Source: Promethearchaeota archaeon (GTDB lineage Archaea > Asgardarchaeota > Lokiarchaeia > Sigyniarchaeales > SOKP01). From it: a stretch of DNA of 64,000 bases. The translations under genes and the position numbers were made by a program. Under the pieces are notes generated by a model. The model made no database searches. It was not told where the DNA came from and saw only the letters and a program-made list of their open reading frames with translations. The stretch's first letter is position 1. Each line of letters starts with the position of its first letter. Location of the stretch: positions 576,001 to 640,000 of the forward strand of contig JAHPZA010000010.1 of NCBI GenBank assembly GCA_019058445.1. Reading direction: 5' to 3'. Shown in pieces: positions 45,051-49,249 of the stretch.

Positions 45051-47185
45051 TTAGCCTATTTCAACATCCATCTTCTTACGCTCTTCAAGGAGATCGTCAA
45101 CTACAGATGGATCGGCTAAGGTTGTGACATTTCCAATATCAGTTCCAGATGCGATAGCTTTTAAAATTCGACGCATGATTTTACCGCTTCTGGTTTTTGG
45201 GAGAGCATCGGCAAATTGAACGACATCAGGTTGAAATACTGGTCCTATTTCTTTTCGAACATGATTTTTAATATCTCTCTTCAACTCAACTGATTTATCA
45301 ACGCCTTGCATTAAAGTAACAAAACTCCAAATGGCTTGACCCTTAATTTTGTGGGGAAAAGGAGCTACTGCAGCTTCAGCTACCTTCGGATGACTCACTA
45401 TTGCTGATTCGACTTCCATGGTTCCAATTCGGTGGCCTGAAACCTTAATCACATCATCTAATCTGCCTAAAATCCAATAATAACCATCTTCGTCTCGACG
45501 TGCTCCATCTCCAGTATAGTAACATCCCGGATACCTTTCGAGATAAGTCGATTTGAATCGTTCGGTGTCACCCCACACATCTCTTAACATACCAGGCCAT
45601 GGTTGAGCCATACAAAAATATCCTCCTTCATGGGCTTCAGTTACCTCGTCTCCTTCTAAATCAAAAATTATCGGTTTGATTCCTAAGAATGGTAAGCAAC
45701 ATGAACCTGGTTTTGTGGGTGTAGCGGTCGCTATCGGCGTCATTATAAAGCCCCCCGTTTCTGTTAGCTAATGAGTGCGAATTGCAATCATCTTTTGCCA
45801 GTATGTATCAACGATGGGGCATTTTTCCTTTCCTACAATTCTGTGATACCACGTCCATGCCTCAGGGTTTTTCCCAAACTACGCATAAGTTGCATAATTT
45901 ATTGGTTCCCCTACAGTACCTAAGACGCGGATAGAGCTGAGATCATGTTTATTCACAGGCTCATCACCATATCGCATTAACGCTCTTATTGCCGTCGGAG
46001 CTGTATAAAACTGTGTAACCTTGTGTCGCTCAACAATATCCCAAAAGCGGTCCACATTTCCCCCATATGAAGAAATTTCAATTTTTCCTAAAGAATTAGG
46101 ATTTTTAATTTGTATGACTGGGTATGTAGGCACGCTTTCAAACATAAGTGTTGTAGCGCCATTTGCTAATGGTCCATATACAATATAACTATGTCCGGTA
46201 ATCCAACCTATATTTCAGCTAAGCTAAGCGAGTTGCTTTAACTTTCTGCTGTACAATACCAGACATCGCCATCCTTATAATTAAACACCACTCTATGTGT
46301 AAATGAAGTGTAAAGGATATAACCTGCTGTGGTATGTTTCACCCCTTTAGGTTTACCAGTAGTTCCGCTTGTATATAGGATGAATAAGGTGTCTTCAGAA
46401 TCCATTTCTTCACAATCACAATCCTCATTCATACCATCAATGAAATCATGATACCAGATATCCTTGTTGGTGCTTGGAACTTCATTTCCCGTACGCTTTA
46501 CTATTATAACATGCTCTATGGTAGGTACGTCATCGATAATTTGAGCGACATCTGCCATTTTTGGATAGGTTTTTCCCGCTCTAAAGGTCTCATCGCTAGT
46601 AAACAACAATCTCGAATCAGAATCCTCAATCCTATCTTTTACTGCTTCTTTTGAAAATCCGCCAAATACAATAGAATGAATTATTCCAAGTCGAGCGCAG
46701 GCTAACATAATAATTGCCAATTCAGGCAACATAGGGAGCCAAATGGTGACCCTATCTCCTTTTTTGAGCCCAAATTTTTTCATGCCGTTGGCAACTTTAC
46801 ACACTTCTTTTTTTAGCTCGCTAAATGTGAATTTTCTCACTTCTCCGGGTTCATCAGCCTCCCAGATTAGAGCGGTATGGTCGCCTTTCCCTTTTTTGAT
46901 ATGGCGATCGATACAATTATAGCATACGTTTAATTTTCCGCCAACAAACCATTTTCCGGGAAATAAGTCCGTTTTTTCCCAAACTTTATCGTAAGGTTTG
47001 AACCAGTCTAAAGATTTAGCTTGCTCGCCCCAAAACCCCTCCATATCATCAATACTTTGCTGCCACAGTTTTTTATATTCTTCGAAAGACATCCCGGTCT
47101 TTGCATAATCAGGATTTAAATTAACCGGATTGAAAACACGTGTTTCTGTAAGAATCGATTCCATTTTTTTATCTTCTTCTGACAT
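45051..47185 (-). CDS. acs: Acetyl-CoA synthetase (AMP-forming), 5 exons / 4 putative BHB introns; exons 46246-47185, 46118-46213, 45901-46057, 45794-45870, 45051-45763; spliced product 660 aa
   Basis: [68 protein letters not shown]. Exon sum is 1983 nt (661 codons) with no internal stops after splicing. Confidence 0.9.
45764..45793 (-). other. acs intron 4, 30 nt, BHB-type, contains in-frame UAG
   Basis: mRNA: CU GGCA AA|A GAUGA...UCAUU AGCU AA|C AG; removal gives UGG CAA ACA GAA (WQTETGG). Confidence 0.85.
45871..45900 (-). other. acs intron 3, 30 nt, BHB-type, contains in-frame UAG
   Basis: mRNA: ACCA AU|A AAUUAUGCA-ACUUA-UGCGUAGUU UGGG AA|A; removal gives GEPINPEAW. Confidence 0.85.
46058..46117 (-). 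other. acs intron 2, 60 nt, relaxed BHB-type, in-frame with no stop
   Basis: mRNA: ACCC AG|U CAUA...UAUG GGGG AA|A UGUGG; removal gives CCA GAU GUG GAC CGC (YPDVDRFW). Confidence 0.75.
46214..46245 (-). other. acs intron 1, 32 nt, BHB-type
   Basis: mRNA: UGUA CAGC AG|A ...hairpin... GCUG AA|A UAUA; removal gives GCA GAU AUA GGU UGG (ADIGW). Confidence 0.85.
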
Positions 47186-47341: not shown

Positions 47342-49249
47342 ATGGAAAGAATTGATTTATTAGATAAAGACTGGAGAGAGAAATGGAAAAATAAGGAAAT
47401 AACACCCAAAGAGGCAATAGGGAAGATTATTCCTGGAAATCGGGTATTTATTGATACTGGGTGTAGTGAACCGCAGGCATTAACAGATGAATTAATCAAA
47501 CAATCTGAAAAATTGATAGATACTGAGTTAATTCACTTTCTCACAATTTATCCTCAAAAATATTTCAAAGATAAGGCAGAAGATTTGTTTAGGCATAATG
47601 CGTTTTTTATAGGGAAAGCTCTCAGAGAGGAAATAAATAAAGGACAAGCAGATTATACACCTATAATAGCCAGTGAAATTCCTTCATTATTTCTTTCAGG
47701 TCGTAAATATTGTGATGTTGCCTTAATTCAAGTAACTCCCCCGGATCGATATGGTTTTTGCTCATTTGGAGTTAATGTTGATGTTGCTAAGCCAATTGCC
47801 CAATCAGCGTACATTACTATTGCCGAGATAAATCCCCAAATGCCCAGAACATTGGGAAATAGCTTCATCCACATGAAAGAAATTGATCATTTTGTGTATA
47901 ACGACACACCTCTCATAGAATTCCAGTTTAAGGAAAAGAATGAGATTATTGAGAGAATAGGAAAAAATGTAGCAGGTATCATTCAAAATAAATCAACAAT
48001 CCATATTGGTAATGGATATATTCCGAATGCTTGTTTAAATTACTTATTTGAAAAAAGAGATCTTGGAATGCACTCTCATTTTATAACTGATAATATCATA
48101 CATTTAATAGAAAACACTGTTTTAACATGTAGGAAAAAGAACTTCCATCCTGAAAAGATTATTACTAGCTACGCGTTAGGAACAAAAAAGCTATTTGATT
48201 TTATCAATAATAATCCTTACATTGAGTTTTATCCAACAGATTACATCTGCAATCCCCGATATATCGCAATGAATAAAAACATGGTTTCAATAAATCAAGC
48301 ATTACAAATCGATTTAACAGGCCAAGTAAATACTTCAACAAAAGGATACAAATTTCATACTGGAATTGGAGATACTGTGGATTTTATGAGAGGGGCAGCG
48401 CTTTCTAAGGGTGGAAAGCCAATAATTGTTTTACCTTCAACAAGAAAAGAGGGAACGGAATCAACCATAGTTCCCCATTTAGACGAGGGAGCGGGAATAA
48501 TTCTTTCTCGAGCAGATATTCACTATGTTGTAACCGAATGGGGAGTAGCATATCTTCATGGAAGGACAATTCGAGAAAGAGCCTTAGAATTAATATCTAT
48601 TGCCCATCCTGATTTTAGACAGTCTTTATTAGATCAAGCGAAAATATTGAACTACATTTACTCTGATCAATTATTACCCTGCGATGAGGAAGGAAATATT
48701 TGTATTTATCCAAAACACTATGAGACCTATTTTGTGACTAGAGCTGAAGAAAAAGTTATTGTACGCCCGGTAAGGACAACTGACGAACCTCTCTTGAAAA
48801 AATTGTATTATTCTTTAGATGAAAGAGATAGATATTTGAGGTTCTTTGAGGTGAAAAAGGAATTTACACATTCAAAAACACAACATGAGGTTAATATTGA
48901 TTATGAGAATATCTTTTCAATTGGAGCTTTTGTAGGAGATATTACAAATCAGGAAATGGTGGGAAACGCATCTTATTACTATAATCCCCGAAATAATATG
49001 GCAGAATACAGCTTTTTAGTTCGAGAAGATTATAGAGGTAAAGGAGTGGGCTCTTTTCTCTATCACCACTTAATCATCATAGCAAAAGAAAGGGGAATAA
49101 AAGGATTTTATGGAACTATTCACATCCAAAATAAACAGACGGTACAGATCATAAGGAAAGGAGGGTACACAAAAATTACACCTCCAGAAGCAGGAGAAAA
49201 AGAATTATTTTATGAAGTTTTTTTTGATAAAGACAATTCAAATGAATAA
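47342..49249 (+). CDS. Acetyl-CoA hydrolase/CoA-transferase fused to a C-terminal GNAT N-acetyltransferase
   Basis: DVALIQV.PPD..G.CS.G, EIN..MPRT.G, ID.TGQ, G.GD..DF.RGA..S.GG, VVTEWG.A.L.G; GNAT: YLRFF, AEYSFLV..DYRGKGVG. Confidence 0.9.
   Translation: MERIDLLDKDWREKWKNKEITPKEAIGKIIPGNRVFIDTGCSEPQALTDELIKQSEKLIDTELIHFLTIYPQKYFKDKAEDLFRHNAFFIGKALREEINKGQADYTPIIASEIPSLFLSGRKYCDVALIQVTPPDRYGFCSFGVNVDVAKPIAQSAYITIAEINPQMPRTLGNSFIHMKEIDHFVYNDTPLIEFQFKEKNEIIERIGKNVAGIIQNKSTIHIGNGYIPNACLNYLFEKRDLGMHSHFITDNIIHLIENTVLTCRKKNFHPEKIITSYALGTKKLFDFINNNPYIEFYPTDYICNPRYIAMNKNMVSINQALQIDLTGQVNTSTKGYKFHTGIGDTVDFMRGAALSKGGKPIIVLPSTRKEGTESTIVPHLDEGAGIILSRADIHYVVTEWGVAYLHGRTIRERALELISIAHPDFRQSLLDQAKILNYIYSDQLLPCDEEGNICIYPKHYETYFVTRAEEKVIVRPVRTTDEPLLKKLYYSLDERDRYLRFFEVKKEFTHSKTQHEVNIDYENIFSIGAFVGDITNQEMVGNASYYYNPRNNMAEYSFLVREDYRGKGVGSFLYHHLIIIAKERGIKGFYGTIHIQNKQTVQIIRKGGYTKITPPEAGEKELFYEVFFDKDNSNE

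Follow-up and report, generated by a model that had tools for sequence, protein, structure and literature searches.

The window analysed here, a stretch of 64,000 nucleotides (nt) from a Promethearchaeota archaeon (contig JAHPZA010000010.1 of assembly GCA_019058445.1, positions 576,001 to 640,000), carries on its minus strand an acetyl-CoA synthetase gene (acs; 45051..47185), which a tblastn comparison with the intact orthologue L003 divides into five exons and four short putative introns. The third of these (intron 3; 45871..45900, minus strand) is 30 nt long, lies inside the motif GEPIN|PEAW and, on the comparative evidence, is very probably a bulge-helix-bulge (BHB) intron that would be removed at the RNA level. 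A first-pass annotation had already proposed a hairpin intron at this place; that proposal was supported, and an RNA-level intron of the BHB type is the only reading that fits all tests. The genome, a draft assembled from a metagenome in 10 contigs, comprises 4.6 Mb with a GC content of 31% and a completeness of 92.6%. Promethearchaeota form a phylum of the kingdom Promethearchaeati, which is the NCBI name for the Asgard archaea.

The acs gene and its inserts

The list of open reading frames (ORFs) contains no complete acs but three long pieces of it (315, 88 and 230 amino acids, aa), the middle one of which matches solved Acs structures (e.g., 8rpk, E 6e-20). The 30-nt interruption of GEPIN|PEAW that had been proposed earlier is borne out by L003, an uninterrupted orthologue of 662 aa from the same genus that lacks exactly the 10 codons of intron 3. 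The other three inserts lie on the same strand: intron 1 (46214..46245, 32 nt) shifts the frame inside CTAD|IGW, intron 2 (46058..46117, 60 nt) stays in frame without a stop inside TYP|DVDRF, and intron 4 (45764..45793, 30 nt) carries an in-frame UAG inside YWQ|TETGG. All four fall within 480 nt, and their removal yields an acs ORF of 1983 nt (660 aa plus stop) with no further lesion. A split-gene reading of acs was discarded, as the fragments would lose the stretch IGWITGHSY and what follows it.

In a search of the genome, the gene in the window was the only acs-type match; its closest named relatives are metagenome-assembled genomes (MAGs) of Promethearchaeota and Hermodarchaeota. Compared with L003, the ratio of nonsynonymous to synonymous substitution rates (dN/dS) is 0.017 overall, at a dS of about 1.7; past the frameshifting intron 1 it amounts to 0.013 and past intron 4 to 0.014, with dS ranging from about 1.7 to 2.1 across these comparisons. 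Such low values past introns 1 and 4, a sign of strong purifying selection, argue that the downstream exons are read in the spliced frame. The relaxed selection and unrelated lesions expected of a pseudogene were not found, the four structured inserts being the sole lesions. That the insert in acs exists in the DNA is borne out by a second, independent assembly of the source sample, which contains a 28-kb contig without any differences across 45147-47185. Three further samples of the same study supplied short contigs that cover the gene in part, introns 1 and 4 included, and these show no differences either.

Predicted structure and processing of intron 3

Read on the minus strand from 45900 to 45871, intron 3 has the sequence A-AAUUAUGCA-ACUUA-UGCGUAGUU-UGGG-AA, that is, one nucleotide (the third base of a bulge), a 23-nt hairpin, 4 nt forming the 3′ strand of a central helix, and 2 nt. 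The intron hairpin h′ (45877..45899) consists of a 9-bp stem, in which 45899-45891 pairs with 45885-45877, and the loop ACUUA (45890-45886); both the loop and the presence of G-U pairs, two U-G among the nine, can be read directly, as the first-pass annotation had stated. Its further claim of an in-frame UAG holds as well, since the stop is located at 45881-45879, where it terminates the ORF 46145..45879. The AUA bulge on the 5′ side (45900..45902) is likewise present and belongs to a canonical 5′ half of the motif. It adjoins the exon-side strand ACCA (45903..45906) of the central helix H, whose intron-side strand is UGGG (45873..45876). CCA and UGG form three standard pairs with the outer A opposite a G, so that the ACCA/UGGG helix described previously stands for three of its pairs and the fourth is an A.G. 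On the far side, an AAA bulge directly followed by an AGGG/CCCU exon helix had been described. The exon helix h exists, with GGG at 45909-45911 pairing with CCC (45865..45867), followed by an A-U and a U-G pair. The bulge AAA (45870..45872) belongs to a run of five A and is not a clean 3-nt bulge, because two mismatches, A.A and G.A, lie between it and the exon helix. Due to these mismatches the 3′ cut would fall in an A-rich asymmetric internal loop.

By the established rules of BHB processing, which include the anticodon-intron pair rule of pre-tRNA, the second base of each 3-nt bulge is the last one before a cut, and both cuts thus lie two bases 3′ of a strand of the 4-bp helix. Applied to intron 3, it places the cuts at CCAAU|A (between 45901 and 45900) and GGGAA|A (between 45871 and 45870) and gives 1 + 23 + 4 + 2 = 30 nt, and intron-less alleles lack exactly the same 30 nt at this site. 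The symmetric cuts also produce the junction CCAAU|AAACCCUGAG that had been predicted beforehand, within a predicted spliced sequence of GGGGAACCAAU|AAACCCUGAGGC; moving the 5′ cut one to three bases further 3′ would give the same mature sequence. Intron 3 departs from the strict hBHBh′ motif. Its 5′ half is canonical (9-bp stem, AUA, helix); on the 3′ side the bulge merges into a 2x5 internal loop, and it is this loop, together with the A.G in the helix, that takes the insert outside the strict definition. It does have the relaxed (HBh′-type) form known from cbf5 and from many tRNA introns of Crenarchaeota and Asgard archaea, in which at least one helix-bulge-helix half is canonical and the other cut site lies in a loop at the symmetric position; with both cuts placed in this way, precisely 30 nt are lost and GEPIN|PEAW is restored.

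The transcript would thus be expected to fold such that ACCA of the exon pairs with UGGG of the intron; the central helix so formed would be short, with the A.G as its outer closing pair. On the inner side of this helix, the 3-nt bulge AUA would lead into the 9-bp intron hairpin, and on the outer side the A-rich loop would lead into the GGG/CCC exon helix. The tRNA-splicing endonuclease EndA could then cut after the second base of each bulge, and RtcB might ligate the exons and probably also circularise the 30-nt intron, whereby ...GEPIN-PEAW... would be restored and the in-frame UAG lost. We infer that the cuts are made by EndA and the ligation by RtcB, and that splicing would take place in vivo before translation.

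Covariation among orthologous inserts

Orthologous inserts were retrieved as interrupted matches by using the intact region as query against 154 genomes of the same order. Besides the window genome, inserts at site 3 were found in G005 of the same genus, in G142 and G148 of a second genus, and in G061 of a third; a pattern scan of metagenome contigs added three further distinct variants, and a search of named genome records yielded no new site-3 insert. The resulting alignment comprises eight sequences, five from genomes of at least three genera and three from metagenome contigs. In it, 99.2% of the 120 pair cells are standard-paired, and nine of the 15 pairs change on both sides, namely seven of the nine stem pairs, one pair of the central helix and one of the exon helix. 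The hairpin stem is paired in 98.6% of its cells. Both the central-helix pair 12-39 and the exon-helix pair 6-48 occur as GC in six sequences, as AU in one and as GU in one, and columns 9 (A) and 42 (G) are invariant (8/8). None of 500 shuffles reached the observed values, and pairing falls to 21–53% if the partners are slid by one to three columns. RNAalifold independently predicts the hairpin, a central helix and an exon helix. The covariation check suggested by the first-pass annotation thus turned out in favour of the structure, all three helices being kept via compensatory changes across the eight inserts.

G-U pairs account for twelve of the 120 cells; in a transcript of the opposite strand these would become A.C, and the structure therefore belongs to the sense-strand RNA. 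This agrees with the earlier argument, drawn from the G-U pairs of the single sequence, that an RNA-level structure is favoured over a DNA palindrome. Pairing, not peptide sequence, is what the inserts share: their translations, for example YATYA*FGKN, SYGRTS*FGNN, NIWHSQMFGS, NTWNSQVFGN and TKNLFVFGKN, are not conserved. The flanking codons also differ between alleles. The glycine codon within the exon helix is GGG in seven of eight intron-bearing alleles and in none of eight intron-less ones, and the glutamate codon that supplies the A of the A.G is GAA in all eight intron-bearing alleles, as against GAG in three of the eight without intron. Exon wobble positions thus appear to follow the intron, a pattern that is suggestive, the alleles being related. 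For site 4, an alignment of ten orthologues is paired in 88.7% of its cells, with six pairs changing on both sides.

The single-sequence fold is only moderately unusual: it has a minimum free energy (MFE) of -18.4 kcal/mol (z = -2.18), a value that was matched by 6 of 200 shuffled sequences. The case for more than chance rests on covariation, not on folding energy.

The cut rule at other sites

Intron 1 is a textbook example of the strict hBHBh′ motif (UGUA-CAGC-[AGA]-hairpin-GCUG-[AAA]-UAUA), and the rule restores CTAD|IGW there and corrects the frame (predicted junction CAGCAG|AUAUAGG); orthologous inserts exist in L037, L038 and L039. Removal of GU..AG at the same site was rejected, because it yields AESW instead of ADIGW. 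Intron 2 has the form ACCC-[AGU]-...-GGGG-[AAA], and its removal restores TYP-D-VDRFW with the predicted junction CCCAG|AUGUGG; the orthologue in L039 is 42 nt long and has a perfect ACCC/GGGU helix. Intron 4, GGCA-[AAA]...NGCU-[AAC], shares the 1+23+4+2 build of intron 3, and its removal restores YWQ|TETGG (predicted junction UGGCAAA|CAGAAAC), with boundaries that can slide by 1–2 nt within an A run.

Two further genes of the genome carry inserts to which the same rule applies. About 44 kb past the end of the window, the gene for EF-2 is interrupted at C10:684116-684145 (minus strand) by a 30-nt insert of canonical BHB form (ACAG-[AUA]-stem-CUGU-[AGU], the stem being 9 bp and the loop 5 nt long), and removal of this insert restores ...AGQLQMTD|SDDEEQERGITI. 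In a GH38-type glycosidase gene (C9:6926-6955, plus strand), the 30-nt BHB insert CGUG-[AAA]-hairpin-CACG-[AAU], again with a 9-bp stem and a 5-nt loop, can be removed to restore THWDRE|WYLTF and with it the signature HWDRE|WY. Four structural scans of the genome for ORF-restoring BHB-like hairpins found no excess over a mirror-repeat decoy, the strictest rule at L=30 returning 3 real hits vs 1 decoy. The signal is drowned out by the high AT content of the genome (31% GC) and by junctions between genes on the same strand, and even the relaxed introns of acs do not pass strict filters. As a separate observation, a perfect 30-nt BHB-shaped element, UGGA-[AAA]-stem-UCCA-[AAA] with a stem of 9 bp and a loop of 5 nt, is situated at C10:5858-5887 (plus strand) between open frames of 49 and 118 codons.

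Candidate splicing machinery

The host encodes both a splicing endonuclease and an RtcB-type ligase. EndA (C9:770313-770918, 202 aa) has the N- and the C-terminal domain (PF02778, 2.5e-6, and PF01974, 2.9e-18, being the two families matched), and RtcB is located at C1:114713-116020 (E 2.6e-172). When applied to the whole genome, ARAGORN reported only 23 tRNA genes, many of them doubtful; 19 of the 23 were called intron-containing. Standard tools evidently overlook the majority of the tRNA genes here, which accords with the heavily interrupted tRNA genes of Asgard archaea (bioRxiv 10.64898/2026.10.13.758758).

Weighing the alternatives

Several findings weigh against the assignment of intron 3 to the BHB type. 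The motif is relaxed, since beside the A.G its central helix has only three standard pairs, and the predicted 3′ cut sits in an A-rich loop of 5–6 nt. In the window sequence, the BHB-like fold is not the MFE structure (-13.7 vs -17.4 kcal/mol, about 4 above it), as there is room for the hairpin to lengthen to 11 bp, and pairing in the central helix has a probability of about 0.15–0.18; for four of the five other orthologues folded, the MFE structure is a bulged helix-hairpin fold. RNAalifold favours the register CCRA/UYGG for the central helix. This register was set aside, as symmetric cuts there remove 28 nt and break the frame; we flag the ambiguity. Finally, no second EndA paralogue was found in the 92.6% complete genome, neither with PF01974 and PF02778 at E values of up to 10 nor with the EndA protein itself as query, and the Asgard EndA able to cut relaxed motifs is reported to form (alpha-beta)2 heterotetramers (PMC5829648).

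Alternatively, the insert could be removed from the RNA not by EndA and RtcB, but by a hitherto undescribed nuclease or ribonucleoprotein that recognises the conserved 23-nt hairpin instead of the bulges. No other element is conserved nearly as well as this hairpin, the bulge-helix part is relaxed and outside the MFE fold of the window, and a single EndA subunit was detected. We consider such an activity the likeliest of the alternatives but nevertheless improbable, since the ends of the inserts match BHB cuts exactly at all four acs sites as well as in EF-2 and GH38, the exon-intron helix covaries, and intron 1 has the textbook hBHBh′ structure. Removal might be dispensable altogether if ribosomes bypassed the insert by taking off at AAU and landing 30 nt further on, at AAC. 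For site 3 this would fit in that Asn is specified both by the codon preceding the insert (AAU) and by the last codon of the insert (AAC), and in that a hairpin follows the take-off site. Programmed bypassing is nonetheless highly implausible, given that there are no matching codons at site 1 (GAA ... AAU, with a frameshifting gap of 32 nt) or site 4 (CAA ... CUA), that it would not require covarying exon-intron and exon helices, yet both covary, and that the single rule of BHB cuts accounts for all sites.

It also appears very unlikely that the insertion exists at the DNA level only, as part of a decaying pseudogene, a small palindromic mobile element or a tolerated, translated peptide. Hairpin inserts can be small mobile elements, and three of the eight site-3 inserts (L037, L038, L039) are free of stops, so that read-through would be possible there. 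A pseudogene is at odds with the fact that the only acs-type match of the genome carries no lesions besides the four inserts and has dN/dS values of 0.013–0.017. A translated or tolerated peptide insert is contradicted by the UAG in intron 3 and the frameshift by intron 1; it would also split one of the most conserved Acs motifs, and it is the base pairing that is conserved while the peptide is not; a palindromic DNA element, in turn, is contradicted by the G-U pairs that make the structure strand-specific. An artefact of assembly or binning would be conceivable for a metagenome-assembled draft of 10 contigs, but it can practically be dismissed: the independent assembly is identical over 45147-47185, the contigs of other samples agree, and orthologous inserts occur in unrelated assemblies. 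Other known intron classes were considered and rejected; the borders A..A, the length of 30 nt and the lack of any Rfam match in the window do not fit a spliceosomal, group I or group II intron, for which GU..AG borders or a catalytic RNA core hundreds of bases long would be expected. The Rfam search of the window returned no RNA family and ARAGORN no tRNA in it.

Distribution among relatives

In a tree of the exon protein sequences, intron-bearing alleles are scattered. Within one clade with 100/100 support, introns 3 and 4 are both present in L015, L017 retains or acquired just intron 4, and L016 is free of introns. Such patchy, exact presence and absence in close relatives implies that the introns appear or disappear exactly, without scars. 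The allele in the window groups (support 95/79) with the most interrupted one, its nearest relative in this tree, L039 of G148 (G148:C25:1-950, minus strand), which belongs to another genus and has six acs inserts plus an interruption at site 1. They follow reference residues 315, 347, 364, 401, 425 and 479, with positions 364 and 479 being uninterrupted in the acs of the window; at residue 315, a 3-residue gap holding a stop lies at the break between two matched pieces.

Two other alleles, L035 (G143) and L038 (G061), have a 33-nt in-frame, stop-free insert after reference residue 350 (DREFPFSIDGY and DIEFFYSIDGY, respectively), three codons downstream of the position of intron 2 in the window; it may be a shifted or an independent intron. 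An allele of the same genus as the window, L019 (G007:C219), has an in-frame stop at acs codon ~36, where others encode Glu (MSFE*YKK), without an insert; an error of sequencing or a nonsense mutation may account for this stop, or there may be another cause.

The divergent neighbour of acs in the window (47342-49249, plus strand) encodes a 635-aa fusion of acetyl-CoA hydrolase/transferase domains and a GNAT acetyltransferase domain. The pairing of acs with a GNAT-fusion neighbour recalls the Pat/Acs pair of bacterial acetylation control.

Implications and comparison with known systems

Whether the Promethearchaeota, which are Asgard archaea of the Loki type, generally carry dynamic BHB micro-introns of ~30 nt in ordinary protein genes, several per gene, gained or lost precisely and removed by the tRNA-splicing enzymes, is in our estimation an evenly balanced question. 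If they do, the prokaryotes most closely related to eukaryotes would routinely depend on mRNA splicing for core metabolism and for translation, and splicing and translation would be forced into some separation or into kinetic competition. A central metabolic enzyme of an Asgard archaeon would need four splices within 480 nt to be made. Interrupted at the same positions in several genera, with clear covariation and exact losses, acs offers a testable case of a prokaryotic protein gene with several introns, from the lineage that is nearest to eukaryotes, and it raises the questions in which order splicing occurs relative to coupled translation, how introns were gained at the most conserved codons, and whether annotation systematically miscalls such Asgard genes as broken.

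The intron in the cbf5 pre-mRNA of Crenarchaeota has reportedly been the subject of work by Watanabe in 2002, Yoshinari in 2006 and Yokobori in 2009. It resembles the acs inserts in that it is cut by the tRNA-splicing endonuclease and has been gained and lost among related lineages (PMC2738675). It differs in gene and phylum and in that there is one intron per gene, whereas acs here has four, which are predicted from comparative data; cbf5 splicing has been shown experimentally, and acs has a uniform 30-nt build of 1+23+4+2. In our literature search, archaeal BHB introns within coding sequences were reported only for cbf5, together with one case in a 5′ untranslated region (UTR; PMC2738675, PMC7714728), and the search returned no paper on BHB introns in protein genes of Asgard archaea. 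The UTR case, HVO_1309 of Haloferax volcanii, is an mRNA substrate of the archaeal splicing endonuclease as well, but its intron lies in the untranslated leader, where removal rebuilds no reading frame (PMC7714728).

BHB introns in archaeal tRNAs and rRNAs have the same order of elements as predicted for acs (helix, 3-nt bulge, 4-bp helix, 3-nt bulge, helix) and the same cut positions, and they depend on the enzymes, EndA and RtcB, that are predicted to act on acs. Those of archaeal tRNAs are said to have been treated by Marck and Grosjean in 2003. The host RNA of acs, by contrast, is an mRNA, in which splicing would have to compete with translation and codons make up the exon half of the motif, which is therefore constrained by the protein. 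A preprint of 2026 on the heavily interrupted tRNA genes of Asgard archaea deals with tRNA introns only (bioRxiv 10.64898/2026.10.13.758758).

Among systems in which the sequence is not spliced, the bypass elements (T4 gene 60; the mitochondrial byps of Magnusiomyces) are also short hairpin inserts in coding sequences that are absent from the protein. They differ in staying in the mRNA and in needing matching codons, a requirement that fails at acs sites 1 and 4. HAC1 and XBP1 of eukaryotes, in turn, undergo unconventional splicing and have short introns in their coding sequences (26 nt in XBP1) that are defined by RNA stem-loops and removed without a spliceosome by a protein endonuclease and a tRNA ligase; Ire1 cuts, and Trl1 or RtcB joins. 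The nuclease there is Ire1 and not Sen/EndA, recognition involves 7-nt loops instead of bulges, and splicing is a regulated stress switch. Intron 3 of acs would thus represent a new instance of the known BHB kind, with unusually good comparative support and in an unusual multi-intron context.

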